From assembly GCA_964342815.1 (NCBI GenBank), contig CAYFHS010000010.1:58379-122378 (forward strand): a stretch of 64,000 nucleotides of DNA, read 5' to 3'. This document shows positions 3,001-21,303 of the stretch, in pieces. The DNA is from an uncultured archaeon (GTDB lineage Archaea > Thermoplasmatota > Penumbrarchaeia > JASLWR01). The translations under genes and the position numbers were made by a program. Position 1 is the first letter of the stretch. Every line of letters starts with the position of its first letter. Under the pieces are notes generated by a model, which worked only from the letters and a program-made list of their open reading frames with translations, did no database searches and had not been told where the DNA came from.

Positions 3001-3343
3001 TATTGAAGTTTGCAAGACTGACATGACCGGTTGGGGAGCCTCCAGCGCCTCCTGCTCCGGATAGAAGTATTCTGCCCTGGAACGTGTCCATCCCAGCGGT
3101 GGAATTGCTGAAATCTATAAAATCTACATTCTTGAAATCATCTATGAAGACCTTGCCGTACCTTGTTTTTGACGTATCGGATTCACTGGGAAAAACATTG
3201 GAAAGACCGGCAAAACACTCTACACTGCTTTGATCCCATCTGTATGAAACACGGAGAATGGATGTGAACGAGAGAAAAGAAACTAGGGAAAGGATCAGCA
3301 CAATTCGCAGAGTACTTGTTTTATCGTTCATCTCATGAGACAT
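1..3343 (-). CDS. Surface adhesin-like paralog P1 (3' end lies outside the window; at least 1114 aa): signal peptide, carrier domain with inserted beta-sandwich tip, FN3/Ig-like stalk, TM helix
   Basis: Not in the ORF track because the frame is open to the window edge. Manual translation from ATG 3343 gives MSHEMNDKTSTLRIVLILSLVSFLSF...TRYGKVFIDDFKN...IGAV-like VGAVRLTWYEHKPPGTDIIYNITADGEHW...WNFTDPDPGDHQSEY...DSDGDLLPDWWE...LLAKYWWLLIIIGSLILISVIAVILLAASKKRKEKK. It is colinear with P2-P5, and the frame is the same at both ends. Confidence 0.92.
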   Translation of the reverse strand, partial: MSHEMNDKTSTLRIVLILSLVSFLSFTSILRVSYRWDQSSVECFAGLSNVFPSESDTSKTRYGKVFIDDFKNVDFIDFSNSTAGMDTFQGRILLSGAGGAGGSPTGHVSLANFNTAMGSMFINTQANFNNHPNGALQANFYAGIGISSMTSTSGNVQNSAGPGQGNQGGAIQGEGPHQASGMLTNIGPNSQFTMTFGNAQSGVGFMVVDKFQGGGMRLKGYSGVQGNGNLIATATAPNNNYQRNNMVFMGVTDGGVNSIRSVVWNIPNNGGDVVGIDDIRFGATGIMNNRSHVQSKVLHDTLKAVGAVRLTWYEHKPPGTDIIYNITADGEHWDTVANHTNHVFTHIGSQLMWNATLTTKDEEVTPYIDKVVIEIDLVDDPEPFAPNSHEWQGSSTPTLEWNFTDPDPGDHQSEYFVEMYSDDEGTDMVFNSSWKNSTTPKHVVEDDLEDGTYFWRVRTRDIYHASSNFSALKKIMIDVTKPVRNITIEEGALTVNEQLVDIRINASDNGSGIADMQIINDRGKDGPWEEFKTEKRISLVPSDGLKTIGVRFRDNASIVSEIFNDTIYLDLLGPDEINVSSTTHPTPEMYYNSTLPVFSWDPPREVGGIKGYSYLVDPSPLTEPTKVLYTPNSEITGTFAGEFSGLTDGTWFFHICASDIYDQWGNTSHFRFNIDTSIPLISEMGPDNTVWYNSGNALAEAVFTDIDSFGLDLESIKYSYRISGGNSFSSWTNDGMEFEILEKSTENNPVKVRAYVNIPLSEGSDNTIRWRISDLAGNGPALSEKWSVKVDKSPVTFSMPVPETEEIFLEDMLICGITVSDAGGSGVDGKTIEYAVSKYGEDKKYFQNWTAISNHMVKESIDVSLEIQFEPGKDNYIRWRAKDAVGNGYSISDTYRIWINSPPVPSIMKPYDGETFKEGSIIQLNASGSEDNEGDELSYFWIIKGKTSKKTVFKGHGLGCQAVLDQPGRFLVYLYVDDGLGFNESVKLGIEIVPRPVDEDDDDGNVWDDTIDSDGDLLPDWWEIENGLDPNDPNDASQEKMDAYENELNEKKSNNAAEDGLLAKYWWLLIIIGSLILISVIAVILLAASKKRKEKKQIPTQIPPPKSFHPYPQG

Positions 3344-3394
3344 GTGAACCAATACCATAATACATGATATACGAAATATTTCATATTTTCGCAA

Positions 3395-6300
3395 TTATTC
3401 TGCAAGGTATCCCTGTGCGCTACAGTTAGTACATGTTATTGTTGTGGGCCGCTCGGTTGTCTCGACCTGGTTCATGGAACCGCAGGCATGGCATTGAACG
3501 CCGGGCAGTTCGGTTTTTTCCTCTACGGGAGACTCAGCAGGCATTTCGGATTCTGTAGTTCCCTCTGTCGGCAGGGAGGAAAATATATCCTCAAGGGGGC
3601 CAGGAACGCTTTCCTCCGTTTCCGGTGCCGGTGATATGGGTCCGTCCACGGCGGGCTGGTCCTGTGTGTTATCCATTCCGGCTTCATTTACCAAGCCGCT
3701 TTCGGCATCGACCTGATCAATTGGGGCCGCTTCCACGCCGGTAGCAGGAGGAAGCGCCTTAAGATCGAGGTTCGGAGTGCCCAGTCCGGAGGTAGACACC
3801 GGAAGAGAATATTCAGGGGAATTTTCAGATGTTTCCTCCTGTTGAGCTCCCATTTCCGGTGCGATCAATGAAAGGTCCAGGGGAGGTAGTGTCAGGTCCA
3901 TGAGCGGCTGTAGTTCCATGGGACTTTCCGTGCTCATGGGGAGTGCGGGTCGATGAGGATCCGGGACGGTACCTGCCGTAGGTGGAAGCTGTACCTGTGG
4001 ATAATTATTAACAGGCGCCCCTCCCGTCCCTCCTCCCCAACCACCACCGGTTCCATAGGACGGAGAATATCCGGGTTGAGATTGCAGCGAAGCGTACATC
4101 TCGGAATACTGCGGATAGTGAAAGTCCCTGGAACCCATTGGGTACGGATCAGGAGAGTAACGCTGCTGAGGGGTATATTCCACATTATCCACCTCTTCTT
4201 CATTTTTCCCCTTTTTCACAGTTATTACGATTATCCCAATTATCATCAGCACTACGAGAACGCCTACAATGAGCAGGATCCACCAGTAACTCGACAGAAA
4301 ATCGTCTTCCACAGCTGTCGCACCCTGATGTTTTGCAAGTTCACTGCGATAGAGATCTTTCTGTGGATCGGTGGCGTCGTTGGGGTTACCCAGGTTCAGG
4401 CCCTTGAGTTCCTCCCACCAGTCCGGGAGCCCGTCGCCGTCGCTGTCCGTTTTATCCTCCCACCGCTTCGTCACTTCGTTTCCTGTGGGTTGGGGGATAA
4501 CCTCGATTGTCAGCTTTATGCTCTCGTTGAAGCCGAGGCCGTCATTCACATACAGGTAAACCAGATATTTGCCAGTTTTGTCAAGTGTGGTATTGGCATC
4601 TGGCCCCCAGGCTTTGAAAACGATCTTTTTGCTGGTCTTCCCCTTTAACTCCCAGTAGTAGCTGAGCTCGTCCCCCTCGTTATCCTCCGTCCCTATAGCG
4701 CTGAGGGTGACTGTGGCGCCATCTTCGAATTTCTGATCGTCGTAAGGTAAGGCAATTACCGGGGAGGGAGCCGAATTGACCCAGATACGGACAACTTCGG
4801 ACACGGCGTATCCGTTCCCAACAGCATCTTTCGCACGCCACATGATATAATTGTCCCGCCCTGGTTCGAACCCAATGTCCATCAGAACTACGAGGATCTC
4901 ATTTACCATGTTGTTGTTCGCATTTGTCCAGTTGACAAAATATTTCGAGTCGTTACCAAATGCAGAGATAGAATATTCCACAGTCTTTCCATCCACACCG
5001 CTTCCGCCTGCATCGCTGATTGTCAGGCCGACGGAAACCATGGTATCTATGGATACAATATCATTGGCAGGAAGCGGATCTGAGAAGGTCACCGGGGTGA
5101 GGTCCACCTTGATGGTAAGCCTATCGCTCTCAACGGGGCCGTTTCCGGATATATCGTTTACGCGCCATAATACAGCGTTCCGGTCACCCTCCGCGAGACC
5201 CAGCTGAACCCATGCCCTGACCTTCACGGGATTATCATCGATACCTTCCTCCAATATCTCGAATTCCATTTCGTCGGACGTCCATCCCGAGAATGTTCCC
5301 TCGCCGCTCTTCCGGTACGAATATTCTATGGTATTGGTGTCCAGACCGAAACCTTCAGCATCGGCAAAGGTGGCCTCCACAAGGATGTCGGTGCGCCTGA
5401 ACCATTCACCGTCCGTCGGAACAAATCCGGAGATAACAGGGGCGATGCTGTCTATGTTGAACCGGAAATGAGTGGTGTTGCCCCATTGGTCGTAAATGTC
5501 ACAGGGAGTTATATGAAAATACCACGTCCCCTCGCTGAGCCCGGCAAACTCGCCGGGATAGGTTCCCGTAAGATCGTTGTTCTGGTTGTAAAGCACTTTA
5601 GGTGGTTCTGTGACAGGCGTGCTGTCCACGGTATACGTATATCCCTTTATACCGGTCACTTCGTACGGCGGTTCCCAGGAGAAGACCGGGAGGGTGCTGT
5701 TATAATACACCATGGGATCCGGATGAGTTGGAGAGGTCACTTCGATATCGAAAGGTCCCTTGAGATCGAAATAGATAGTATCGTTATAATCCTCCGAGAC
5801 GATCCCCGCGTTATCCCGAAACCGAATAATTATCTTCTTCAACCCGTCGAGAGGGGTGAGGGCGAAACGTTTCTCTGTGGCGAATTCCTCCCAGGGACCT
5901 TCGTTCCCCCGATCACCTATGATCTGCATATCCGCAACGCCCGAAGCGTTGTCGAAGGCATGGATGGCCAGGTCGACCAGTTTATCGTTTACCGAGGAAA
6001 TGCCTTCATGTATGGTTATATTGCCCACGGGGCGGGTCACATCGATCTTGAAACTTTTTTTGTAGGAGTAATTGCTGGCGACATTATAGTTGTCCTTTGT
6101 TCGCGCCCTCCAGAAGTATACGCCATCCACCAATGAATCCGATATGGTATGTTCCGTAAAGGAGGAATTCACCCATGAGGAATTGTATATTTGATTGCTC
6201 AACTGTTCATCGTTGTAAATCTCCACCAAGTATTCTGATTGGTAATCGCCCTTATCCGGATCAGTGAAGTTCCACTCCAGTTTCGGGGTCTGGGTTCCCT

Positions 6301-7567
6301 GCCATATATGAGATTGGGGCAGGTGGGGCTGAGGATTGCTGAATAGGTCATACTCGATAATGATCTTGTCTATGTACGGGCTGATATTCTTGTCATCGGT
6401 CTTTATTGTAGCATTCCATCTCAATGCCGATCCGCGGTGCTCTAGAATGTATGACGTTTCGTTCTCAACGGTTATCCAGTTCTTCCCGTCAACACTTAAC
6501 TTGTATATGATTTCCGTACCCTGGGGAAGATGCTCGAACCAGGTGGCTTTCACAGCTCCTATGGTCTTGGCCTCATCATACAGTATTTTCGATTGTATAT
6601 AGGTTATATTCGTGGGAGGCTCGATATCGTTACCGAGGTAGGCGTTGCCGTCTGATATTTTGTAACGGTGTGGGTTGTTGTTGTTGGCAGAAATACAATA
6701 TTCCTCCCCATTGAAAGCCATGTTGTAGATGCTTTCCTGAACGTTGAACTGTCCCACCAAAGCGCCATTGGCCGGGTTGATGATGCCAACATTCTGAATA
6801 TTATTGTTATAGCCCCCCACATATAATAAACCATTAGCAAAGGCAAGACCCCCGTACACCCTGGGATTGCCGTTTATATTGAAATTTCTGACATGCTGCC
6901 CGTTATCCTTTCGGAGAACCCTCACTTGGTTCTGGTTATAAACCATTGCATAAACGTAATTGTCATCGCAGCAAACGCCTCCGGTGGTGCTTCCCATGTG
7001 ATACGACCATATCTGGTTGTTGCCGCGGTCGGACCATTTATAAACTCTGTCATTTCCCCAATTTGCAGTATAGTATGTCCCATCCTTATCTCCCCAGAGC
7101 TGCATAATATTTCCGGTTCCGCTGTTGAAGGAGCCCAGATAGTTGTTATTAATGTCGTACCGGTAGATCGTGCTCCCGGCCCACTGGGGATACCAGTACT
7201 CATTGTATTTAGGACTGAATCCGCCACCGTGTGATCGTGTGTTCTGGTTCATCCTGCCTTTATAGGTAGGCGGGATTATGGGGCTGCTACCCCACAGCAT
7301 AACCCGACCGTCCATTGTGCGAATTGAAGCTGTAGTATTGGAGCTGTCGATATACGTCAGATTGTTGAAATCCTCAACAATTCGATTGCCGTAACGAGTT
7401 TTTGACTCGGAGATTTCAGGAAGCTCTGGTCGCAAAACCCCGGATTTCTTTGTCTCTTCCACAGATGATGTGGAGTGAAATACAATGGAGATCATCAGAA
7501 TGCAGATACCGAAAGATATTAGTTTTGAAAAACCCATTTTTTTCTCAATCAAGAAATTTATTGGCAT
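3395..7567 (-). CDS. Surface adhesin-like paralog P2 (1390 aa): propeller-like tip, conserved stalk, TM, Pro-rich tail, C-terminal Zn ribbon
   Basis: Long ORF with GGTGG SD upstream of ATG and an N-terminal hydrophobic signal. Contains DSDGDGLPDWWE, a TM segment YWWILLIVGVLVVLMIIGIIVITVKK and C-terminal CHAC..RP..CTNC. Confidence 0.93.
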   Translation of the reverse strand: MPINFLIEKKMGFSKLISFGICILMISIVFHSTSSVEETKKSGVLRPELPEISESKTRYGNRIVEDFNNLTYIDSSNTTASIRTMDGRVMLWGSSPIIPPTYKGRMNQNTRSHGGGFSPKYNEYWYPQWAGSTIYRYDINNNYLGSFNSGTGNIMQLWGDKDGTYYTANWGNDRVYKWSDRGNNQIWSYHMGSTTGGVCCDDNYVYAMVYNQNQVRVLRKDNGQHVRNFNINGNPRVYGGLAFANGLLYVGGYNNNIQNVGIINPANGALVGQFNVQESIYNMAFNGEEYCISANNNNPHRYKISDGNAYLGNDIEPPTNITYIQSKILYDEAKTIGAVKATWFEHLPQGTEIIYKLSVDGKNWITVENETSYILEHRGSALRWNATIKTDDKNISPYIDKIIIEYDLFSNPQPHLPQSHIWQGTQTPKLEWNFTDPDKGDYQSEYLVEIYNDEQLSNQIYNSSWVNSSFTEHTISDSLVDGVYFWRARTKDNYNVASNYSYKKSFKIDVTRPVGNITIHEGISSVNDKLVDLAIHAFDNASGVADMQIIGDRGNEGPWEEFATEKRFALTPLDGLKKIIIRFRDNAGIVSEDYNDTIYFDLKGPFDIEVTSPTHPDPMVYYNSTLPVFSWEPPYEVTGIKGYTYTVDSTPVTEPPKVLYNQNNDLTGTYPGEFAGLSEGTWYFHITPCDIYDQWGNTTHFRFNIDSIAPVISGFVPTDGEWFRRTDILVEATFADAEGFGLDTNTIEYSYRKSGEGTFSGWTSDEMEFEILEEGIDDNPVKVRAWVQLGLAEGDRNAVLWRVNDISGNGPVESDRLTIKVDLTPVTFSDPLPANDIVSIDTMVSVGLTISDAGGSGVDGKTVEYSISAFGNDSKYFVNWTNANNNMVNEILVVLMDIGFEPGRDNYIMWRAKDAVGNGYAVSEVVRIWVNSAPSPVIALPYDDQKFEDGATVTLSAIGTEDNEGDELSYYWELKGKTSKKIVFKAWGPDANTTLDKTGKYLVYLYVNDGLGFNESIKLTIEVIPQPTGNEVTKRWEDKTDSDGDGLPDWWEELKGLNLGNPNDATDPQKDLYRSELAKHQGATAVEDDFLSSYWWILLIVGVLVVLMIIGIIVITVKKGKNEEEVDNVEYTPQQRYSPDPYPMGSRDFHYPQYSEMYASLQSQPGYSPSYGTGGGWGGGTGGAPVNNYPQVQLPPTAGTVPDPHRPALPMSTESPMELQPLMDLTLPPLDLSLIAPEMGAQQEETSENSPEYSLPVSTSGLGTPNLDLKALPPATGVEAAPIDQVDAESGLVNEAGMDNTQDQPAVDGPISPAPETEESVPGPLEDIFSSLPTEGTTESEMPAESPVEEKTELPGVQCHACGSMNQVETTERPTTITCTNCSAQGYLAE

Positions 7568-7847: not shown

Positions 7848-10800
7848 TTAAACGGCGAATCCCTGCACGCCACAGGAAGAACAGATCACAACCGCCGGTC
7901 GTACGTTCGTGGTCACCTGATTCACGGCCCCGCAGGCGTGACAGGGGATGCTCTGGGGCGATGGAGTTGGCGGAATCTCCGGTGCTGGGGGAGACTGGGT
8001 GGGAAGGGGCGGTTCAGCAGGGGGCAGGGGTAGCTCACCGCTTTGACGTTGACCGAATATATCATTCAGCAGGTCGTCCGCGCTTTTTGCGGTGGAAATC
8101 AACGGTTGCGGTGAACGGGGAACCACTTGCGGTACAGCTGGAGATGAAGACGGAACCGATGGCGGAATTTCCGGCACGGGAGCCACCGGTTGTGGATCCG
8201 CCATGGTACCAGGAAGAGCATCGAACGACAGCGGTTCCTGCGCAGGCATGGCCGTACTCGGATCGAAGGCACCAACAGTACCGGTCTCATCCTCCGGGGC
8301 CGGAGGCAGGGCCATGCGATTGAGATTCATAGTACCACGCTCGGTTGAGAATTCAGGCAGGGAATAATTGGGTATGCCAGGTGAGAGGGGTGCCGCTCCG
8401 ATTTGTGCCACCCGGGGTGCTGGCAGGGCCGGGGGATTGTAAGTTGAACCAGTGGGTGATAATTGGTTGGCAGCTAAAGGTAATTGTTGCCCTCCTCCTG
8501 CATATGGGGCTTGGTAAGATGGCATCTGTCCACTGGTAGTTGGAGCATAACCCCCACCGGATTGCGGAAAGTTCCCCTGGCCATATCCGGTCGCACCCCC
8601 ATACGGGGTCCCGGAAACCGCTTGGGCCTGGTATCCAGTGGCCGTATTCGAATGCGGTGGTTGGTAGTATGCCCCAACGCTAGGCGGATACGAACCTTGT
8701 GAGGCCCGCAGCCTGGGCAGCTCACCCTTCTGCTCTCTTTCCTTTTTCCTTTTCTTTCTCACAGCTATGATGATTATCATGATGATCAATATTATCACAA
8801 CGGCCGCGCCGATCACAAGTAGCCACCAGTAATCCGATAGCAAACTTTTCTCGGGGCCGCTCTTCACTTGATGTTCTCTGAGTTCCGCATCGTATTTTTC
8901 TTTCGATTCCGTTGTGGCGTCGTTTGGGTTGTCGGGGTCCAAGCCGTTCAACTTCTCCCACCAGTCGGGAAGTTCGTCGCCATCGCTGTCAGTTGTATCG
9001 TCCCACCTCTCCTCCACTTCGCTTTCGGTGGGTTTCGGGGTCACTTCGATAGTCAGTTTCACACTCTCGTTGAAACCGTAACCGTCATTCACATAAAGAT
9101 AGAGTAGATATTTACCCACCTGAGCCAGTGTCGTCTGGGTGCCGATACCGTAACCCTTAAAATGAATTTTTTTAGTGGTCTTCCCCTTTATCTCCCAGTA
9201 ATAGTTCAGTTCGTCCCCCTCGTTATCCTCTGTTCCCGTGGCATTCAAGTGAATGATGCTGCCTTCCTCGAATGTCTCTCCATCATACGGCCGATCTATA
9301 ACGGGGACGGGGGCCGAGTTCACCCATACCCGGAAAGCCTCGGATTCGGCGAAACCATTCCCTACTGCATCCTTCGCCCGCCATTTTACATAATTATCGC
9401 GGCCCGGTTCGAACTGGATGTCCATGAGCAAGTCCATGGTTTCCTTCACCAGGTTGTAATTGATATTGGTCCAGTTTATAAAATATTTCTCGTCATCACC
9501 ATATTTGGATGTGGAATACTCGATGGTCTTTCCATCAACACCGCTGCCTCCGGAATCGTCGATGTTAATACCAATGGACACGGAGGTTTCGCTGGAAACC
9601 TCGTCGAAGGCGGGAAGTGGATCGGAAAAGGTCACCGGGCTGAGGTCCACCTTGATCTGCAGTTTTTCACTTAACGTCGGGCCGTTTCCGGACATGTCGG
9701 TAATACGCCACATGACGGCATTTTCAGCTCCCTCGTTCAACTCAATACTGGCCCAAGCTCGGACCTTCAATGGATTTTTCTCTGTACTTCTCTCCAATAC
9801 CTCGAATTCTATCCCGTCGTCCGTCCACGCTGTAAAAGAGTTCTCACCGCTCTTTCTGTAAGTGTAGGCCAAACTTTCCTCATCCAGACCGAAACCCTCA
9901 GGGTCCAGAAATGTAACTTGGGATAATATCTCCGTAGTTCCATGCCAATCCCCACTTGACGTGACAATCTGAGAAACAACAGGGGGGACACTGTCGATGT
10001 TGAATTGGAAATGGGTAGTATTCCCCCATTGATCGTAAACATCACAGGGCGTAATGTGGAAATACCAGATTCCCTCGCTCAGCCCCGCGAACTCGCCCGG
10101 GCTTGTTTCTACAAGATCGCTGTTTTGCGAATAGAGGACCTTGGTCGGTTCACTGAGAGGCGTACTGTCCACTGTATATGAATATCCCTTTATTCCCGTT
10201 ACTTCGTACGGAGGGTCCCATGAAAAGACGGGTAGTGTGCTGTTATAATACATCTGATCGTCCGGGTGTGTGGAAGAGCTGACCTCAATATCAAAGGGTC
10301 CCGTGAGATCGAAATAAACAGTATCGTTGAACTCATCTGAAACGATGCCTGCGTGGTCCCTGAATCTTACTCTTATCTTTTTGATACCATCCTTGGGTGT
10401 CAGGGAGACTCTCTTCCCGCTCTTGAACTCTTCCCAGGGCCCGACATTCCCCCGGTCGCCTGTGATCTGCATGTCGGCGATTCCGCTGCCGTTGTCGGAG
10501 GCTTTAATGGCAATATCAACCAGCTGCTCGTTCACAGAAAGAGCTCCGTCCTCAATGGTGATATTACCTATCGGTTTCGTAACGTCGATCAATATTTTCT
10601 TGAGAATGGAGAAGTTACTGGGTGCATGATAGATATCCTTTGTCCTAACCCGCCAGTAATACGTCCCGTCCTCCAACTCCTTAACGAGAACATGCTTCGG
10701 CTCCGTAGAATTCAGCCAAGTAGTGTTATAGACCATTGTGTTCATTTCTAGCTCCGAATAGATCTCCAAGAGATAATCTGACTGGTGATCGCCTTTATCG

Positions 10801-12008
10801 GGATCTGTGAAATTCCATTCCAGAGTGGGGGTCGAAGTACCCTGCCATACTTCCGAATTCGGCTTATTCGGTTCCGGTTGGCTCACCAGATCATACTCTA
10901 TTATTACCTTGTATATCGCTGGAGATATCTCCGGATCATTCGTCCTCATGGTGGCGTTCCATCTCAGCTTTGATCCCTGGAATTCGAATATATGGTTCGT
11001 TGCATTCTCCATGGTCACCCAGTGTTCATCATCCACTGTCATATTGTAGATGATACTGGTACCAGGCGGTGTGTTCTCATACCAGATGATTCTCGCTGCC
11101 CCGATGGTCGGCATCTTATTGTGAATGATGTGGGAATGTATGTATCCCAGCTTCTTGTCGCCGGAGAACATGCTGCCAGGTAGCTCAATTGCCATAACGG
11201 CCAAAGTCTGGGAACCTTGATGATTGCTTTCCTCCCGAAGCGGTGTGCGCCCGTCCAGCTCCGTGGCCATCCCAACAGCGTTTGCATTGGTCCAATCGTT
11301 GCAGGTCTGCCCGTTTACAAATTGTCCTCTTACATTCGAGCCTGTCCAGCCGTCAGCATCCGACCAATCGGGATTGGCACCGGTATTCTCATTCACTTCA
11401 CGGTTAACAAAGGTTCTTAAATATCCTCCATTGGACCAGCTTGGATTGTCACCCTGAAATATTCGGTTCCAATTGTTATACATGGCGTTCTTGTTTCGGT
11501 CTACTATTGGCATGTTGGATGCATAAGGCTCAGGTATGATATCCTTCATGTGCTGCTGCGATGAAGACAGCATTGCCTTCCAGCGAGAGGCCCCGAATCC
11601 CTGCTGCGCAGCATTCTGGTTGACCAGACTATCAGCTCCTGCAATACCACCCATATTTCCATTGTGGGCATTGTCCATGGCTGTGAAAATGAGCTTTCCG
11701 GGGAATGTTTCCGTCCCTCCCAGAAACACGATACCCCGGCTGGTATCCACTCCTGCGCTGGTATTTGTAAGGTCGATCCCTTCGGCGTTATCGAAATCCT
11801 CCACAATAACGTTTCCGTAGCGCGTTCTCAAAGAAGATTCGCCTGAAGTTCCCGCATTATCGTACCCTGCGATCACAAAGGCATCGGTTGGGATCGGATC
11901 GCTCTTATATGGAAAGGAACTGTTAAGAAATAAAATTAGTAATGTGATGGAAAGCAGGGAAACCATCAATCTGGTCTTATTTTTATCTGAAAACCTCATA
12001 GAGACCAA
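7848..12008 (-). CDS. Surface adhesin-like paralog P3 (1386 aa) with an endostatin/DUF1554 (C-type-lectin-fold)-like tip domain
   Basis: Same carrier, stalk, TM and tail as P2. Tip motifs NGNMGGIAGAD, WKAMLSSSQQ, MPIV, WNRIFQG, WTGS..G, TCNDW, VMAIE. The start may be ATG 11999. Confidence 0.92.
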   Translation of the reverse strand: MVSMRFSDKNKTRLMVSLLSITLLILFLNSSFPYKSDPIPTDAFVIAGYDNAGTSGESSLRTRYGNVIVEDFDNAEGIDLTNTSAGVDTSRGIVFLGGTETFPGKLIFTAMDNAHNGNMGGIAGADSLVNQNAAQQGFGASRWKAMLSSSQQHMKDIIPEPYASNMPIVDRNKNAMYNNWNRIFQGDNPSWSNGGYLRTFVNREVNENTGANPDWSDADGWTGSNVRGQFVNGQTCNDWTNANAVGMATELDGRTPLREESNHQGSQTLAVMAIELPGSMFSGDKKLGYIHSHIIHNKMPTIGAARIIWYENTPPGTSIIYNMTVDDEHWVTMENATNHIFEFQGSKLRWNATMRTNDPEISPAIYKVIIEYDLVSQPEPNKPNSEVWQGTSTPTLEWNFTDPDKGDHQSDYLLEIYSELEMNTMVYNTTWLNSTEPKHVLVKELEDGTYYWRVRTKDIYHAPSNFSILKKILIDVTKPIGNITIEDGALSVNEQLVDIAIKASDNGSGIADMQITGDRGNVGPWEEFKSGKRVSLTPKDGIKKIRVRFRDHAGIVSDEFNDTVYFDLTGPFDIEVSSSTHPDDQMYYNSTLPVFSWDPPYEVTGIKGYSYTVDSTPLSEPTKVLYSQNSDLVETSPGEFAGLSEGIWYFHITPCDVYDQWGNTTHFQFNIDSVPPVVSQIVTSSGDWHGTTEILSQVTFLDPEGFGLDEESLAYTYRKSGENSFTAWTDDGIEFEVLERSTEKNPLKVRAWASIELNEGAENAVMWRITDMSGNGPTLSEKLQIKVDLSPVTFSDPLPAFDEVSSETSVSIGINIDDSGGSGVDGKTIEYSTSKYGDDEKYFINWTNINYNLVKETMDLLMDIQFEPGRDNYVKWRAKDAVGNGFAESEAFRVWVNSAPVPVIDRPYDGETFEEGSIIHLNATGTEDNEGDELNYYWEIKGKTTKKIHFKGYGIGTQTTLAQVGKYLLYLYVNDGYGFNESVKLTIEVTPKPTESEVEERWDDTTDSDGDELPDWWEKLNGLDPDNPNDATTESKEKYDAELREHQVKSGPEKSLLSDYWWLLVIGAAVVIILIIMIIIIAVRKKRKKEREQKGELPRLRASQGSYPPSVGAYYQPPHSNTATGYQAQAVSGTPYGGATGYGQGNFPQSGGGYAPTTSGQMPSYQAPYAGGGQQLPLAANQLSPTGSTYNPPALPAPRVAQIGAAPLSPGIPNYSLPEFSTERGTMNLNRMALPPAPEDETGTVGAFDPSTAMPAQEPLSFDALPGTMADPQPVAPVPEIPPSVPSSSPAVPQVVPRSPQPLISTAKSADDLLNDIFGQRQSGELPLPPAEPPLPTQSPPAPEIPPTPSPQSIPCHACGAVNQVTTNVRPAVVICSSCGVQGFAV

Positions 12009-12203: not shown

Positions 12204-15200
12204 TTATTGTGCGAGATATATCTGGGTGCCGCAGGAAACACAGGTCACGGTGGTGGGTCGTACGGCAGTCATAACCTGATTCATGGAGCCGCAGCCATGA
12301 CATTGTATACTGGGCAATTGCGGAATACCCGGGATAGGAGGAGGAGAAACCATATCCGGTACCGGAGGTTCGGGAGAAGATAAACCTGGGGGCGGCGACG
12401 AAAAGATATTGTCCAGTGGACTCGAACCGCCTTCCACCGGTACCGCCGGAGCGGGCGTAGGGGGCGCTTCCGGGGAGGGTGTTGAATTGATTCCCGGTAA
12501 AGGCGGTATGTAGATAGGCTGCACCGCACCTGATTGCTCGAATGCGCCAGGCAAACCTTTTCCACTTGTTCCGTCGCCTGCAATTGGGATTTGCCCCCCT
12601 GGGGATGTTTCCTCGGGAGGTGCAGGGGGAAGGGCCATGAGATTGAGGTTTTGAGTCCCCTGTTCGGAGGTGAACGCTGGCAGGCTGTATGCTGGCGGGG
12701 TGAAAGACGGTGAAGCTGACTGAGCTTCGGTTCCCTGTGCAGTGGTTATAGGGCTCTGAGGTGGAATGGCCATGTCCTGCACGGGCTGTATTTCCGCCGG
12801 TCCCGTGTACATTGGAAGAGCGGGTCTTTCAGGTACAGGGCTAGCACCTGCTGCAGGTGGCAGTTGTGCCATGGGATACTTCATATAATTTGGCTGACTT
12901 CTTTCCTGTCCGCTTCCCCACCCACCACTGCTTCCATAAGCGGGAGAGTACGCGGACTGAGATTGGTGGGAAGCATACATCTCGGAATACTGCGGATTAT
13001 GGAAATCCCTGGAACCAATTGGATACGGCTCGGGAGAATAGCGCTGCTGTAAGGCGTTTTCCATCTCTTTTTCTTCTTCTTCCTTCCTCTTCTTTTTCGC
13101 CACAATGACTATTATTCCAACGATCAAAGCCACTATGATAAAGCCCACTATAAGAAGAACCCACCAGTACCTCGACAGGAGGTTTTCCTCCCCGACTTCC
13201 GCACCCATATGTTCTGACAGTTCAACTCGATAAAGATCCTTTTGTTCATCAGAACCGTCGTTGGGATTGTCCGGATTCAGCCCATTGAGTTTCTCCCACC
13301 AGTCCGGGAGCCCGTCGCCATCGCTGTCAGTTGTATCCTCCCATCGTTTTATAATATCGATACCGGTGGGCTTCGGAGTAACCTCAATGGTAAGTTTTAA
13401 GCTCTCGTTGAAGCCGAGTCCGTCATCCACATGAAGGTACACCGAATACTTACCCTGCTGATCCAGTGCTGTGCTTGCATCGGGCCCCCAGCCTCTGAAA
13501 ACGATCTTTTTACTGGTCTTGCCCTTTATCTCCCAGTAATAACTCAGTTCGTCCCCCTCGTTGTCCTCCGTCCCGGAGGCATTCAGGCGGACAGCGGCGC
13601 CTTCTTCGAATTTCTCGTCGTCGTATGGTAGGGCGATGACCGGCGTCGGGGCAGAATTGACCCAGACCCTGACTGCATCGGACACGGCGAAATCGTTCCC
13701 CACCGCATCCTTCGCACGCCACTTTATATAGTTGTTCCGACCGGGTACGAACTCTATATCCTGCAGGATCACCAGGGTCTCCTTTACCATATTGTTGTTG
13801 GGATTTGTCCAGTTTATAAAATATTTCTCGTCGTCCCCATATGCGGAAATCGAATATTCCACAGTCTTTCCATCCACACCGCTTCCACCAGTATCGCTGA
13901 TGGTCAGACCTGCTGAAACCAGGGTATTCTTGGATACCTCGTCATGGGCCGGAAGCGGGTCGGAGAAGGTCACTGGGGTAAGGTCCACTTTGATCGCATG
14001 CCGTTCGCTTTCGATGGGTCCGTTCCCTGAAATATCGTTTATACGCCACATCACGGCATTCCTGTCCCCTTCTACTAGATCGAGCTCAACCCATGCCGTG
14101 ACCTTCACAGGATTGTCATCGATACCTTCTTCCAGTACATCGAATTCTATTCCATCACCGGTCCATCCAGAGAATGTTCCCTCGCCGCTTTTCCGGTATG
14201 AATAGGCAATACTTTCAGTATCCAGACCGTAACCGTCTGCGTCGGTGAAGGTGGCCTCGACGCGGATTTCGGTGCGTCTGTACCATTCGCCGTCCAATGG
14301 AGAAATCTCGGAGATCGCCGGAGCTACGCTGTCTATGTTGAATCTGAAATGGGTGGTATTACCCCATTGATCGTAAATGTCGCAGGGAGTGATGTGGAAA
14401 TACCATTTTCCCTCGCTCAGTCCCGCGAACTCCCCAGGATAGGTTCCCGTAAGATCGCTGTTCTGGTTGTAAAGCACTTTGGTGGGTTCGGTGAGAGGGG
14501 TACTGTCCACCGTATAGGAATATCCTTTTATGGCGGTCACTTCATAGGGTGGGTTCCATGAGAAGACAGGAAGCGTGCTGTTGTAATACACCAGCTGGTT
14601 AGGGTGAGTAGGAGAGGTCACATCGATATCGAAGGGTCCTTTGAGATCGAAGTATATGGTATCGTTGTAAAGCTCGGAAACGATACCTGCGTTGTCCCGG
14701 AACCTCACGCTGATCTTTTTCAGGCCGTCGAGAGGGGTGAGAGCGATACGTTTTTCGGTCTTATATTCCTCCCACGGCCCTTCGTTCCCCCGGTCCCCAA
14801 TGATCTGCATATCTGCTACGCCCGATGCGTTGTCCGAGGCATAAATGGCAATGTTGACCAGTTTATCGTTAACAGAGAGGATATCCTCCTCTATGGTGAT
14901 GTTGCCGACGGGTTTCGTCACATCGATCTTGAAACTCTTAATGACCGAGTAATTGCTGGCGACGTGATAGACGTCCTTGGTTCGAGCCCTCCAATAATAT
15001 ATGCCATCCTCCAGCGCTTCGGTGATGGTGTGCTCTGTAAAAGTTGAATTCACCCATGACGAATTGTAAACCTGATTGGTCAGTTCCTCATCGTCGAATA
15101 TCTCAACCTGGTATTCGGACTAGTGGTCGTTCTTATCAGGGTCTGTGAAATTCCATTTAAGCTTCGGTGTTCGAGTGCCCTGCCAGACCTCGGATGTTGG

Positions 15201-16451
15201 TAGATGGGGCTGGGGACTGCTGAAGAGATCGTAGTCGATGACCACCTTGTCGATGTAAGGGCTGATGCTTTTATCGTTGGTCTTTATGGTGCCGTTCCAC
15301 CTCATGGGCGACCCGCGGTGTTTGAATACGTGGGTGGTTCCGTTCTTCATATTGACCCAGTTCACCCCGTCCAGGGTCAGTTTGTACTCGACATCGGTAC
15401 CCTGGGGCTTGTGCTCGTACCAGGTCATCTTGGCGGCGCCAATTGTCTTGGTGTCATCGTAAAGTATCTTGGACTGGAAATGTGTTATGTTTGTTGGAGG
15501 TTCAACGTCATCACCGAGATAGGCGTTTCCGTCACTGATCTTATACTTCAAGACGTTTGCGTTGTTGGATGATACACAGTAGTTCTCGCCGTCGAATGCA
15601 GAATTGTAGATATTCGTCTGAACCCTGAATTCACCTATCTTCTGATTGTTGTGGGGGGTGAACATTGCCACTCTCTGGTAGTCCCGATTGTAGCCTCCGA
15701 TATACAGAATACCATTGGCAAAAGCCATGGTCCCATAATCATAGCATGTGGCGCCTATACCCCATGTTCGTACATGCTGACCATTGTCCTTTCTTAGAAC
15801 GTAAACATTGCTGTCATACCACCTCATTGCATAGACATAGGTATCATCACAGCATACGGAACCCGCCGTGCTGCCGAGGTTGTATGACCATATCTGATTG
15901 TTTCCCCTGTCACTCCATTTGTAAATCCTGCGGTTCCCCCAGTTCGCGGTATAATAGGTGCCGTCCTTGTCACCCCAGAGCTGCATCATCTGGTTCGACC
16001 CGGAATTGAAAGTACCCAAATACTGCCCGGCCCTGGTATACCTGTAGATGGTGCTTCCCGACCAATGAGGATACCAGAACTCATTATATTTCGGGCTGAA
16101 TCCCCCGCCGTGAGAACGCGTATCCATATTCATTGATCCCTCGTTTGTTGGCGGGATCACAGGGCTGCTGCCCCAGAGATAGGCTCGGCAGTCCATGCTG
16201 CGAACAGAGCATGTAGTGTTGGACCGGTCCACCATGGTGTAGTTGTTGAAATCCTCCACAACTCGATTCGCAAAGCGCGTGCCGGATAACTCCGCGTCCG
16301 GGGCCAAGACCTTTTCGATAACAGTATCTTTAGGTCTTTCAATGGATGACCCGTGAAAAACCAGGAGAAGCATCATGATAAATACGACAAAAGCAAACGT
16401 TTGTTTCAACAAACCTTTTTCAGTGAAGAAAGACTCAATTGGCATATGCAA
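12204..16451 (-). pseudogene. Paralog P4 (1415 aa if read through), interrupted by one in-frame TAG at 15120-15122
   Basis: ORFs 15120..16451 and 12204..15053 are in the same frame. The junction reads DPDKNDH*SEYQVEIFDDEELTNQVYNSSWVNSTF, and P1, P2, P3 and P5 all have Gln at the * position. AGGTGA SD precedes the start. Confidence 0.85.
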
Positions 16452-16660: not shown

Positions 16661-19600
16661 TCAAGGAGCTGGAGGTTTTGGGGGCGGTTGCGGAGAGGTT
16701 TTGGGGGTTTTCGGACCGAAAATATCGTCGAGAACATCGTCCTCGGTGCTCATGGGGGGAGCAGCATGGGATTCCATTGATTCAGGAGGCGAAACAGCAG
16801 GGGCGACCGATCCGGATTGGGCTTCCGACCATTTTGTTGAGGGTGAGGGGGGAGATATTACTGGGGATCCGGAAACGGTTACTGGATCGGGTGTAATATG
16901 TGAGGCTGATGGAGGTGCTATCACGGTGGGTTTGGGCATGCTTGTGGGCTCACGTGTTCTGGGTGATGGTGTTGGAGGTTCTATCACCGTGGATTTTGAC
17001 ATGCTTGTGGGCTCAGGTGTTCTGGGTGATGGTGTTGGAGGAGATATAATGGGGGTTTCAGAGACTAGTCTTGGATCAGGTGTTATCGGTGATGAAGGTG
17101 CTATTACCGTGGGTTTGGACATACTTATGGGCTCGGGTTTTATGGGTGTTGGTGTTGGGGGAGATATATTGGGGTATTTAGAGACTGGTATTGGGTCAAG
17201 CGTTATGGGTGATGGTGTTAGGGGAGATATAATGGGGTTTTCAGAGACTGGTGTGGGATCCGATGTAATTTGTGAGGCTGATGGAGGTGCTATTATTGTG
17301 GGTTTGGACACGTTGATGGGCTCCGGTTCAACCGGCGATGCTGTTGTGGGTGATATTGCAGTGGTCTCCGGGACCATAGTAATTGGTATGAGTGATTCCA
17401 CAGTCTCCGAAGGGTAGGTTGGCTCCTCGAAGGTTTTTTTCATCTCCTCATCCCCCGCTGCAGGGGGAAGTGCCAATCGATTTAGGTTTATGGTACCTTG
17501 CTCCGATGTGAAAGAAGGTAAAGAATATTGGGGCGGGGTCGGCGAGCTGATCACTTGTTCATACTGTTGTCCCTGCTGAGCGGGCTGGATTGAAGGAGTC
17601 ACGGGAGAAATTACATTAGAAGGTTGTTGTACGGGAAAGATCTGTTGCTGCGCTACAGGGACCTGTGAAGCCATGGGAAGGGCAAGAGGCATATGTCCGG
17701 GCCCCGTAGAACCGGCAGACGGCAGCTGAGGATAAGTATCCGGACGGCCCCCGAATTGCGTGTTCGCCCCTTTTGAGGATCCCCAGCTCGAGAATTGTGT
17801 TCCATAAGCCGGATGTGACTGGTAAGTGTTTGTCATCTGCGAATATTGGGGTGGGTAAAAATCCCTGCTTCCAACCGGGTACGGTCTCTCCGGAGCTATT
17901 CGATTTGGCATGGCGTTTTCCGTTTCTTCTTCCTTCTTCCGCTTATTTTTTGCCACAACAACGATACCGATGATCACTATTAAAATTAGTGCACCGATGA
18001 TAATCAGAACCCACCAGTATTTTGAGAGCAGACCTTCCTCCGTGATTTTAGCGCCTTTTTGTTCATCCAATTCCCTTTTGTAGGTTTGTTTCATCTCCTG
18101 GGTCGCGTCATGGGAATCATTTGGATCAAGGCCGTTCATTTTCTCCCACCAGTCCGGCAGCGAGTCCTCGTCGGTGTCAGTAGTATCCTCCCATCTCACT
18201 TCAGCTTCTTTTCCGGTAGGTTTCGGTTCGATCTCAATATCCAGCTTCACGCTTTCATTGAAACCATAACCGTCGTCCACGTGTAAATAGACCAGGTATT
18301 TACCCGGTTGATCCAATGTTGCCTGTGTCTCCTTCTGGTATCCTCTGAATACGATCTTCTTGCTTGTTTTTCCCTTTATCACCCAGTAGTAACCAAGCTC
18401 GTCTTCCTCGTTGTCATTGGTCCCTTCGGCACTCAGGCGAATTGAAGAACCTTCCACGAAGATCTCTTCATCATATGGCGCGTCGATCACAGGCTCCGGG
18501 GGTGAGTTGATCCATACCTGGCTCGCTTCGGACACTGAATAACCATTTCCCACTGCATCCCTTGCCCGCCATTTAATATAGTTATCACGACCCGGTTGAA
18601 ACTCAATATCCACCAATATGTTCAAACTCTCTTTGATCATGTTGTTGCTCATACCCGTCCAGTTGACAAAGTTTTCATCGTCGTTACCCCAGGCGGATAT
18701 GGAATACTCTACGGTCTTTCCGTCCACACCGCTGCCGCCCATATCGGTGATCGTGATACCTGCGGACACTGTAGTTTCCGTGGATATCTCATCATCCGGG
18801 ATCGGATCGGAAAAGGTTACCGCGGTTAGGTCCACCTTGACCGCCCGCTTTTCGCTGTTCACCGGTCCGTTGCCGGACATATCGGAAACACGCCATATCA
18901 CAGCATTCCGGTCACCTTCATTGAACACGATATCGGTCCATGCCCTGACCTTGACGGGATAACCTTCTTCCCCGTCCTCCAGTATTTCAAAATCCATCCC
19001 GTCGCTGTTCCAACCCGAAAATGTTCCCTCCCCGCTCTTTCTGAAAGAGTAGGCAATACTGTTGGTATCGAGCCCGTAGCCGTTTCTGTCGTAAAATGTT
19101 GCTTCAGTTCTTACACTGGTGGTCCCGAACCAGACATTCACAGATGGAACAAGCTCGGAAACCACGGGAAGGACGCTGTCGATGTTGAATTGAAAATGGG
19201 TGGTATTACCCCATTGATCGTACACGTCACAGGGTGTGATATGGAAATACCAGGTTCCCTCCCCGAGTCCGGCAAATTCACCTGCATATGTTCCGGTAAG
19301 GTCCCCGTTAGGGGAATAAAGCACTTTTGTAGGCTCCGTAAGAGGAGTGCTGTCCACAGTGTACGAATATCCCTTGATACCCGTAACCACATACGGAGGC
19401 TCCCAGGAGAATACCGGGAGCGTGCTGTTGTAATAGACCAGGGATTCGGGGTGGGTGGAAGATGAAATTATAACATCGTATGGTCCCTTGAGATCGAAAT
19501 AGACCGTATCATTGAAATCTTTCGAGATTATACCGGCATGGTCCCGGAACCTGACACTGATTTTTTTCAGTCCGTCAGTGGGAGAAAGAACTATTTTTTT

Positions 19601-21303
19601 CTCAGTATTATATTCCTCCCAGGGTCCCTCGTTTCCCCTGTCACCGATGAGCTGCATGTCAGCCACACCACTGCCGTAATCCGAGGCATTGATCCGTAGT
19701 TCGACCAATTTATCATTGACCGATAGCACATCCTCCTCTATGGTTATATTTCCAACTGGCTTCGTGACATCGATCATGATTTTCTTAAGTACTGAAAAGT
19801 TGCTTGCGGCGTGGTATCCGTCCTTTGTTTGCACCCTCCAGTAATAAACACCATCGTTGAGTGCTTCATTGACCGTATGCTCCCAGAATGAAGAATTTAT
19901 CCATGATGAGTTATACCGAATTTCATTCATGCTTTCATTGTCATAGATTTCCACGAGATAATCCGACTGTATGTCGTTCTTGTCGGGATCGGTGAAATTC
20001 CATTCGAGTTTTGGAATGTTGGTTCCCTGCCATGTTGTAGAGCTGGGGGCGTATGGCTCCGGTTCGCTGAACAGGTCGAACTCGATTGTGATCTCTTCCA
20101 TGATGGGTCCGTCATCTACATCTTCAGCCGTAAGCGTGGCATTCCACATCAGCTTCGCCCCCTTATGGTAAAAATGTGGTTTTCACCTGGGGTTATCTCC
20201 TCCCAGTTCACACCATCGGCTGTAACCTTGTAGTCTATGCTCGTACCCTGGGGTTTGCTTTCCACCACGTCGAGTCTAACAGCTCCGATAGTATGTTTTC
20301 CCTGATAAAGCGGTTTCGACTGAACGTACCTAATCTTTGAAGTGGGATCCACACGGTCGCCGAAGTAGGAGTTACCTTCAGAAATCCGATATTTGGATAC
20401 CGAGTTGCCGTTATCCGACACACAGTACTCTTCCCCGTTGTACGCCATATTGTATATGTGCCGATTAGTCCGAAAATCTCCCAGATAGTTACCGTTGCTT
20501 GGATTGAACATACCGACCCTTCTATGATCGCGATTGTATCCCCCGATATACAAAATGCCATTGGCATAGGCCATGGTACCGTAATTATAACAGGTTGCGC
20601 CAATATTGAAGTTCCTCACGTTCTGCCCGTCGCTCTTTCGAAGCACTCTGACCTGGCTGTCATGCCATCGCATAGCGTAAACGAATTGACTATCGCAGGT
20701 TACCGATCCCGCGGTGGACCCTATATTGAAAGACCAGACCTGTCTAACTTGCCAATTGCCGGGGTCCACTGCCCATTTTTTAATAGTATTGTATCCCCAA
20801 TGGGCTCCGTAGAAACTTCCATCGACATCGGACCAGACCTGCATCATCTGCCGTTCGCCATTATTGAACTGCCCCAGCCCCGAATATCCGCTGTTGTACC
20901 TATAGATAGTATTTCCCGACCACTGTGGATACCAGTACTCATCCACCATGGGGGAAAAGCCGCCTCCGTGTGAACGGGTGTTCATATTCACTGTGCTAAC
21001 ATATGCCGGGGAAATGGACTTACTTGATTCGAAAGTGATCTTCCCTGCTTTCGTGTTTATGGTGCAGGATGTGTTGCTTATGTCGATATTGTTGAGATTT
21101 TTAAATTTCTCAACAATTTTATTTCCATAGCGTGTGTAGTAGGGCGGAACGTCGGGTAAGACTGTTGATTGGACCTGTCCCGATCTCTCCGGGGAGACCG
21201 CTACCGGGGGATGAATTGTGAAGGATAAGAGTTGGACGAGAAGAACGCAAACGGCCAATAGACTGATCCAGCTATGCTTTACCCGAAATTTATCTATTGA
21301 CAT
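16661..21303 (-). pseudogene. Paralog P5 (~1547 aa if repaired), split by a 1-nt frameshift at ~20158-20166 into 20149..21303 (tip) and 16661..20149 (stalk, TM, tail)
   Basis: The minus strand reads ACC ATA AGG GGG CGA AGC TGA TGT GG. Adding one base restores F-T-(H-K or I-R)-G-A-K-L-M-W-N-A-T, matching paralog HRGSALRWNAT. The stop and restart overlap as TGATG. Confidence 0.85.
16838..17326 (-). repeat. Coding tandem repeat, 8 units of ~63 bp (21 aa, Pro/Ser/Thr-rich), in the P5 cytoplasmic tail
   Basis: Units PEPINVSKPTIIAPPSASQIT / SDPTPVSENPIISPLTPSPIT / ... / PEPTSMSKSTVIEPPTPSPRT / REPTSMPKPTVIAPPSASHIT. catgcttgtgggctca recurs at 16937 and 17000, a 63-nt period. Confidence 0.9.

Follow-up and report, generated by a model that had tools for sequence, protein, structure and literature searches.

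What is a domain with the motifs of animal endostatin doing in an archaeal surface protein, and from which lineage did it come? These questions are raised by a gene in a 64,000-nucleotide stretch of contig CAYFHS010000010.1 (positions 58,379 to 122,378, assembly GCA_964342815.1; hereafter the window) from an uncultured marine archaeon of the Thermoplasmatota (Penumbrarchaeia). The gene, denoted P3 after its place in an array of five tandem paralogs, encodes a predicted membrane-anchored protein, and a preliminary description of the window had singled out its residues 105–275 (hereafter the head) as an animal-like endostatin domain. By its sequence and its predicted fold, the head is a genuine domain of the endostatin superfamily (C-type-lectin-like), and we hold with moderate confidence that it is a long-form relative of the animal domain, probably acquired from bacteria, which now serves as a swappable ligand-recognition head on an archaeal surface protein.

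Identity of the head

The gene is on the minus strand: the plus-strand reading of 11184–11696 yields stops only, and the minus-strand translation of this interval is residues 105–275 of P3, the peptide quoted in the preliminary description. The Pfam endostatin model PF06482 matches the whole P3 protein with an E-value of 3.3e-18 and 66.4 bits (cut-off 29.4) over profile positions 4–166 of 170, and the head alone scores 71.8 bits. The model of the related family DUF1554 (PF07588; cut-off 27.5) reaches 25.3 bits with the whole protein and 27.7–30.1 bits with the domain alone or in a six-frame search. Thus, the original impression that the domain is closer to endostatin than to DUF1554 was correct (66–72 vs 25–30 bits). 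The database protein identical to P3 already bears an automatic PF06482 tag, and a search of the genome with both models found no second copy.

Structural comparison leads to the same assignment. A phmmer search of the sequences in the Protein Data Bank (PDB) returned only four entries, all of them endostatin sequences of collagen XVIII/XV, at E-values of about 1e-10. The AlphaFold2 model of the head, built on 51 relatives, has a predicted local distance difference test (pLDDT) value of 91.5 and a predicted TM-score (pTM) of 0.88. Foldseek matched it to the endostatin structures 1koe, 1dy0, 1dy1, 1dy2 and 1bnl (E 1e-13 to 1e-15, TM 0.75–0.88) and to nothing else below an E-value of 2. Superposition on these five structures with VIA-align gave Z-scores of 24.7–26.4 and root mean square deviations of 1.8–2.1 Å over 166–173 residues; the next matches, snake-venom C-type lectins and the C-terminal domain of Legionella Lcl, fall below a Z-score of 5. 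Membership in the endostatin superfamily, as proposed in the preliminary description, is accordingly supported by the Pfam profiles, the PDB sequence matches and the predicted fold alike. Chance or convergent similarity is ruled out by the E-values and the full-length fold match.

The head and animal endostatin, both extracellular, share the fold of the whole domain at 25–28% identity, together with a set of core motifs, namely G-x-x-G-A-D, (F/M)LS(S/T), P-I-V, W-x-x-(I/L)F, W-x-G and C-x-x-W.

Relatives of the head in bacteria and animals

A HMMER scan of 1.84 billion representative proteins (E ≤1e-3) produced 236 matches of three kinds. The first kind begins with a single orthologue (78% identity), after which come about 55 proteins at 34–47% identity; its non-archaeal members carry many cysteines and a lipoprotein-like leader, with the domain mostly C-terminal. 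The second kind consists of collagen-linked proteins at 25–31% identity, including a lamprey collagen XV-like protein and proteins of amphioxus and coelacanth, and the third of proteins with several weaker and shorter repeats. Each of 51 domains of the first kind matches both Pfam models, with best E-values of 2.4e-35 for Endostatin and 5.9e-12 for DUF1554; one of these proteins, MEM1030577.1, is named “DUF1554 domain-containing protein” [Myxococcota bacterium] by NCBI. Individual bacterial long forms attain 74–124 bits with PF06482 compared to 65–72 bits for the archaeal domain, which means that the better fit to Endostatin than to DUF1554 is a property of the whole group rather than a peculiarity of the archaeal head. 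The short DUF1554 domains (~150 aa) form a separate clade, and the archaeal head belongs by similarity with the longer form.

Among the species genomes of GTDB, the orthologue is found in an “uncultured archaeon”, and most of the long-form matches come from metagenome-assembled genomes (MAGs) of Myxococcales, Polyangiaceae and “Deltaproteobacteria”; two long-form matches are labelled otherwise, one as an unclassified bacterium and the other as an Enterobacteriaceae-labelled MAG. The short forms in these genomes are spread over Acidobacteriota, Pseudomonadota, Saccharibacteria and others. A partial match in a Candidatus Micrarchaeota MAG (L028:2878–3009; 45% identity, E 7e-7), confined to query residues 23–66 around the GxxGAD region, suggests that DUF1554-type domains are also present in a DPANN archaeon.

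Similarity scores do not bear out the label “animal-like”, because the bacterial long forms are closer to the head and the motifs that had been singled out (LSS..Q, P[IV]V and W..F) are also the consensus of the mainly myxobacterial long-form group. On hidden Markov models (HMMs) of the separate groups, the archaeal heads score 161–185 bits with the bacterial long forms, the model of which was made without archaeal rows, 96–110 bits with the animal domains and 68–79 bits with the short DUF1554 domains. The animal domains, in turn, score 123–144 bits with the bacterial HMM vs 60–76 bits with the archaeal one. Mean identities follow the same order (archaea–bacteria 35.6%, animals–bacteria 30.3%, archaea–animals 27.0%), with maxima to the archaeal heads of 47% among bacterial long forms and 32.7% among animals; the short DUF1554 domains are about 25% identical to the archaeal heads. 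By these measures, the bacterial long-form group is central: archaea and animals both lie nearer to it than they do to one another.

The bacterial long forms and the archaeal head also agree in length, indel pattern and acidic/aromatic motifs, and both are acidic. The settings differ: the bacterial domains lie at one end of large secreted or surface proteins, nearly always the C-terminal end, in many cases follow Cys-rich repeats (Dicty_CTDC, DUF4215) in lipoprotein-like proteins, and keep all four cysteines, whereas the archaeal head is N-terminal, Cys-poor and mounted on an archaeal stalk.

Origin of the head

Two trees were constructed, a quick one of 149 rows and a careful one of 61 rows under LG+C20+F+G4 by posterior mean site frequencies (PMSF), both without the Leptospira Len sequences. 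In both trees, the animal domains, the short DUF1554 domains and the four archaeal heads are clades (100/99 each), and all three attach to a grade of bacterial long forms that is itself poorly resolved. The animal clade excludes the archaeal clade. The archaeal heads likewise lie outside the short-DUF1554 clade (99–100 support), and the head is thus not nested among the short DUF1554 domains. On balance, bacterial affinity is the best-supported position of the archaeal head, and we regard it as reasonably probable.

Several observations weigh against this placement. The archaeal clade lies inside no named bacterial clade, the long-form backbone being unresolved, and its grouping with the relatives L004, L005 and P0009 has a support of only 80–83 in the Shimodaira–Hasegawa-like approximate likelihood ratio test (SH-aLRT). 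The careful tree instead places the long-branched and possibly eukaryotic P0049 as sister to archaea (65/73). The approximately unbiased (AU) test does not reject a union of archaea with animals (p 0.62 with 61 rows and 0.77 with 149 rows), and the trees constrained to this union have higher likelihoods than the free-search trees, although with 149 rows a thorough constrained search was compared to a short free one, so that this likelihood difference is not meaningful. Quartets in which near bacteria are set apart from the other bacteria, the latter being the fourth cluster, are tied under LG+F+G4 and PMSF, with (archaea, animals) at 42–43% vs (archaea, near bacteria) at 41–44%, the PMSF figure resting on 500 quartets. 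Furthermore, the GC content of the head (0.499; 0.53 at third codon positions) is ordinary for the gene and gives no compositional sign of recent transfer. Given this composition and the spread of the head orthologues over at least two genera, any transfer was not recent; it must be old, and the donor cannot be read from composition.

Along with the AU and quartet results, there are two further indications that the archaeal head might share a specific ancestor with the endostatin of animal collagens XV/XVIII, either through transfer in one direction or the other or through the same unsampled donor. In likelihood mapping with bacterial long and short forms as the other clusters, the archaea–animal grouping takes 52% of the quartets under LG+F+G4 and, with the short forms as the fourth cluster, 46% under a site-heterogeneous model; and at two positions, the M of GNMGG and the I of PIV, archaea agree with animals whereas most bacteria show L and V. 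We nevertheless consider a specific archaea–animal ancestor unlikely. L-to-M and V-to-I replacements are easy convergences, and the better model raises the fraction of fully resolved (archaea, near bacteria) quartets, with short forms fourth, from 3.9% to 11.3%, the fully resolved (archaea, animals) quartets being at 16–17%. None of 1000 bootstrap trees shows animals alone as the archaeal sister. The constrained tree brings together the three longest stems (archaea, animals and P0049), which looks like long-branch attraction; in the free tree of 149 rows, archaea group with L004, L005 and P0009, and animals with a different relative, P0052. The archaea–animal comparison also has the lowest mean identity among the long forms and low scores of animal domains on the archaeal HMM (see above). 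The head keeps the bacterial-type indel as well as the DAD and E-x-D motifs, all absent from the aligned animal sequences, but if the animal domains are simply derived, the shared DE[GN]TG, DAD and E-x-D do not decide sisterhood. The similarity scores, the bootstrap trees and the long-branch pattern argue that the archaea–animal grouping is an artefact. If it were true, animal endostatin would have its closest prokaryotic sister in the archaeal head clade, and a basement-membrane domain would have been exchanged between marine archaea and the animal stem, or else a prokaryotic source lineage of animal endostatin would be in hand.

The endostatin-like domains of P0049 (locus L048), P0056 and P0248, all from marine samples, group in a small clade. 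In P0248, a signal peptide, a Thr/Ser-rich stretch, an EGF-like module and a long coiled coil precede a C-terminal endostatin-like domain, and this protein may be a non-collagen coiled-coil analogue of the multiplexins in a marine eukaryote. A marine eukaryote of this type, rather than a bacterium, could conceivably have donated the head to archaea, a scenario that we find less probable still than an ancestor shared with animals. The identity of the head to P0049 (36%) is lower than that to L004 and L005 (44–47%), the eukaryotic origin of the P0049 group is itself unproven, and the position of P0049 next to the archaeal heads, seen in the careful tree and in 65% of the bootstrap trees, comes with weak support and a long branch (1.2–1.4) and is lost when P0056 is included (149 rows), the P0049/P0056 pair no longer adjoining archaea. 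What speaks for such a donor, apart from this position, is that P0056 stems from the “merc” source, which we take to be the Tara Oceans eukaryote metatranscriptome catalogue, that the layout of P0248 is eukaryote-style and the gene calls on the P0049 contig are sparse and short, and that the P0049 group keeps the DEGT and DAD motifs.

The distribution of the head bears on the direction of transfer. PF06482 was detected in 2 of the 401 Thermoplasmatota genomes searched, both from one family, and was not found in a genome of the same genus that is 93% complete; the stalk protein family occurs in Ca. Thermoplasmatota MAGs only, with the head carried by four of its approximately 60 clusters (the protein of the window itself, P0163, P0190 and P0003). 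This narrow spread within a phylum-restricted protein family suggests that archaea are the recipients. Conversely, vertical inheritance of an ancient archaeal domain would require very many losses. The host genome encodes ribosomal protein S28e, for which, among the controls, only the four archaeal ones score. Contamination by a bacterial contig is ruled out by the Thermoplasmatota-only stalk family, the 420-kb contig and the four archaeal orthologue clusters.

Under the bacterial scenario that we favor, an ancestor of a single Thermoplasmatota family would have gained the head from bacteria of the long-form (mostly Myxococcota) group. The preliminary description had offered either horizontal transfer or an ancient prokaryotic relative of the metazoan domain; this general framing fits the present data, with bacteria as the likeliest partner, and the specific link to animals that it implied is neither shown nor rejected.

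The position of the animal domains in these trees deserves separate mention. In these trees the animals are sister to P0052, a bacterial lipoprotein-like protein of 237 aa (L049:2662–3375) that scores 124 bits with PF06482, with a support of 91/88, the 149-row tree giving 91. As placed in trees of uncertain root, the animal endostatin clade appears to branch off from among the bacterial long forms, which hints at a bacterial origin of the animal endostatin domain.

Protein layout and exchangeable heads

The coordinates of P3, its segments and its paralogs are given in Table 1. The open reading frame (ORF) of P3 opens with TTG; the identical database protein, of 1383 aa and carried on a 420-kb contig, begins three residues later at the ATG at 11999, which is likely the true start. 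The leader module is predicted to consist of beta strands (pLDDT 81–86) and the carrier is beta-rich in the model (pLDDT 88–97) and 64–85% identical between orthologues; a joint 410-residue model of leader, head and carrier has a pLDDT of 80.9 and a pTM of 0.58. In the stalk region all Pfam matches are sub-threshold (Ig_Rha78A_N at 390–467, Big_3_3 at 443–517 and PKD at 902–989). The CHAC-x16-CSSC motif at the end of the protein is preceded by about 270 low-complexity residues rich in P, Q, G and Y. Given that this layout is that of a type-I membrane protein with the head at its far, membrane-distal N-terminal end, the word “tip” used in the preliminary description is a fair one.

Table 1. Segments of P3 and members of the tandem array, in positions of the window (aa, residues of P3)
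Feature	Position	Strand	Basis
Whole gene, array paralog P3; 1386-aa type-I membrane surface protein	7848..12008	-	ORF list, translation
Hydrophobic N-terminal signal or anchor segment, aa 14–33, K/R residues before	11910..11969	-	Kyte-Doolittle peak aa 14–15, sequence
Conserved leader module, aa 55–104, TRYGN..VEDF.N..ID..NT, common to all five paralogs	11697..11846	-	paralog alignment
Endostatin-fold head, aa 105–275	11184..11696	-	PF06482, PDB sequence matches, model and fold matches
Conserved carrier after head, aa 276–430, from near YIHSH, common to paralogs	10719..11183	-	paralog alignment
Extracellular stalk, Ig-like and PKD-like domains, aa 431–1050 (~620 aa)	8859..10718	-	sub-threshold Pfam matches
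Single transmembrane helix, aa 1060–1083, then RKKRKK	8760..8831	-	hydropathy maximum 3.1 at aa 1055–1070, sequence
Cytoplasmic tail, ~300 aa, P/Q/G/Y-rich, least conserved segment (27–56% identity)	7851..8759	-	sequence
CxxC-x16-CxxC (CHAC-x16-CSSC), zinc-ribbon-like, tail end, aa 1356–1379	7872-7943	-	sequence
Five tandem stalk paralogs	2..3394, 3395..7567, 7848..12008, 12204..16451, 16661..21303	-	ORF list, paralog alignment
P2 head	6578-7270	-	PknD/“Pizza” NHL-type six-bladed beta-propellers, E 3e-9 to 8e-5
P1 head, Gly/Asn-rich	2495-3052	-	third head type

The five paralogs of the array share the leader, carrier, stalk and membrane anchor at 49–56% identity (for the P3 stalk, 52–56% to the neighbouring paralogs) and are entirely different between leader and carrier. 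The P2 head has no Pfam match; its best matches are the designed “Pizza” proteins and the sensor domain of Mycobacterium tuberculosis PknD. The heads of P4 (within 15120–16451) and P5 (within 20149–21303) align with that of P2. For the P1 head, no Pfam match was found and no match among solved structures at E-values up to 1. As judged from these alignments and matches, the endostatin fold is one of at least three interchangeable heads in the array. In two of the paralogs, head and stalk are encoded by separate minus-strand ORFs, 15120..16451 and 12204..15053 in P4 and 20149..21303 and 16661..20149 in P5.

Orthologous arrays exist elsewhere, represented by the protein pairs P0163 and P0170, P0003 and P0191, and P0153 and P0202. 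Within each pair the longest contigs are of equal size, and the two members are probably encoded on one contig. Three orthologue comparisons gave head identities of 95, 79 and 72%, against 80, 55 and 56% in the stalk and 56, 27 and 30% in the tail; the head is the best-conserved segment in every comparison, which indicates that it is under strong purifying selection. Taken together, this is what would be expected of stalk proteins that exchange their recognition heads while every head stays under a strong constraint of its own.

This arrangement is unlike that of the animal domain, which is the C-terminus of a secreted collagen (NC1), whereas the archaeal head is N-terminal on a membrane protein with an Ig/PKD stalk. 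A Gly-X-Y run was sought in P0001 and none was found, the archaeal head having neither a collagen triple helix nor a trimerisation domain. After its acquisition, the head would have become one of several N-terminal cassettes on this lineage-specific giant surface protein. Elsewhere in the window, at 44001–48000, the GC content is 0.34–0.36 inside a 2080-aa ORF (43886..50128) compared to a window mean of 0.47.

Loss of endostatin sites and the likely function of the head

The preliminary description was right that the head lacks three of the four disulfide cysteines. With the disulfides of human endostatin taken to be Cys33–Cys173 and Cys135–Cys165, only C236, the counterpart of Cys135, is kept, and the other three positions are occupied by V129, G265 and A273. 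The same V/G/A replacement holds in all four archaeal orthologues, and in the relatives the three lost positions (C35, C171 and C179 of the alignment) are cysteine at ≥90% conservation. Endostatin thus differs from the archaeal head both in its four cysteines as opposed to one and in its basic as opposed to acidic character.

The basic patch is lost as well. The heparin site of endostatin, which we take to comprise R24, R27, R53, R139, R62 and R63 and to be the one described by Sasaki et al. (1999), is replaced throughout: R24, R27, R53, R62, R63 and R139 align with G120, A123, S, P, E and T, respectively. The head contains 13 K+R vs 19 D+E residues, for a negative net charge and a pI of 4.9; pI values are 4.5–5.1 for the archaeal heads and average 8.6 for animal domains and 5.4 for bacterial long forms. 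The zinc site, presumably H1, H3, H11 and D76 as in the paper on 1bnl, is gone too, H11 and D76 being aligned with I107 and K and no His-rich N-terminus being aligned. The binding of heparan sulfate and other extracellular matrix (ECM) ligands, which had been proposed from the resemblance to endostatin, is therefore not supported: with the alignable heparin arginines and zinc ligands replaced and an acidic pI, binding of heparan sulfate in the manner of endostatin is unlikely.

What the head retains are two motifs, W215-x-D217-A-D219-x-W221 and E250-x-D252, that are conserved in the prokaryotic forms and absent from the aligned animal sequences; D217 and D252 are ≥90% conserved in 51 sequences. 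A 4-residue segment, DE[GN]TG, is likewise common to the archaeal and bacterial long forms and missing from the aligned animal sequences. In the C-type-lectin-like fold, such an acidic/aromatic composition is seen at metal or sugar sites, and we propose that the head could bind its ligand through W-x-DAD-x-W and E-x-D rather than through a basic site of the heparin type. Held about 1000 residues out from the membrane, it would then be the end at which an adhesin or receptor recognises its ligand.

By analogy with its characterised relatives, all of which are binding modules, the head is probably a ligand-binding adhesin or receptor head, a view that we hold with some, not full, confidence. Endostatin binds matrix proteins. 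The Leptospira proteins LenA-F (PF07588), surface-exposed prokaryotic binding modules of the same superfamily, bind laminin, fibronectin and factor H (PMC2063517) and provide a precedent for an adhesive role. As the ligand, our best guess would be a glycan or surface protein carried by other cells or by marine particles. It is also tempting to speculate that the long tail, with its conserved islands and terminal zinc ribbon, may couple binding to the cell interior.

Alternatively, the head might be a structural cap or spacer devoid of ligand binding, or, as considered above for its distribution, an ancient archaeal domain inherited vertically and mostly lost; we find this as improbable as a eukaryotic donor. 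The fold by itself does not show function, and the composition of the head is usual for the genome, as either version would have it. A spacer, however, would not be expected to be the most conserved segment while the stalk and the tail drift, the same slot in the sister paralogs holds beta-propeller heads of a known sensor type, and both endostatin and the Len proteins (PMC2063517) are binding modules.

Implications of the archaeal endostatin fold

The superfamily, its presence in prokaryotes and the PF06482 tag on the database copy of P3 are already known. A 2014 survey of human ECM domains listed endostatin (PF06482) among the Pfam domains found, within the human proteome, only in ECM proteins (PMC4224354). 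Our literature search turned up no publication on archaeal endostatin-like domains, nor any on the bacterial group that scores with PF06482. To our knowledge, the only characterised prokaryotic relatives of endostatin are the Leptospira Len adhesins. What is new here is the combination of an archaeal host, a disulfide-free acidic variant of the domain, its N-terminal placement on a type-I membrane stalk and the head-swapping array.

These findings have consequences for the domain family at large. The cysteine-poor endostatin fold of P3 should be easy to express and might offer a convenient route to the ligands of the prokaryotic members. The existence of a bacterial long-form group, mainly from Myxococcota, that is nearer to animal endostatin than DUF1554 is bears on the source of this animal matrix domain. 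Finally, archaea too possess an endostatin fold that is full-length and high-scoring, mounted there as the exchangeable head of a receptor-like membrane protein.

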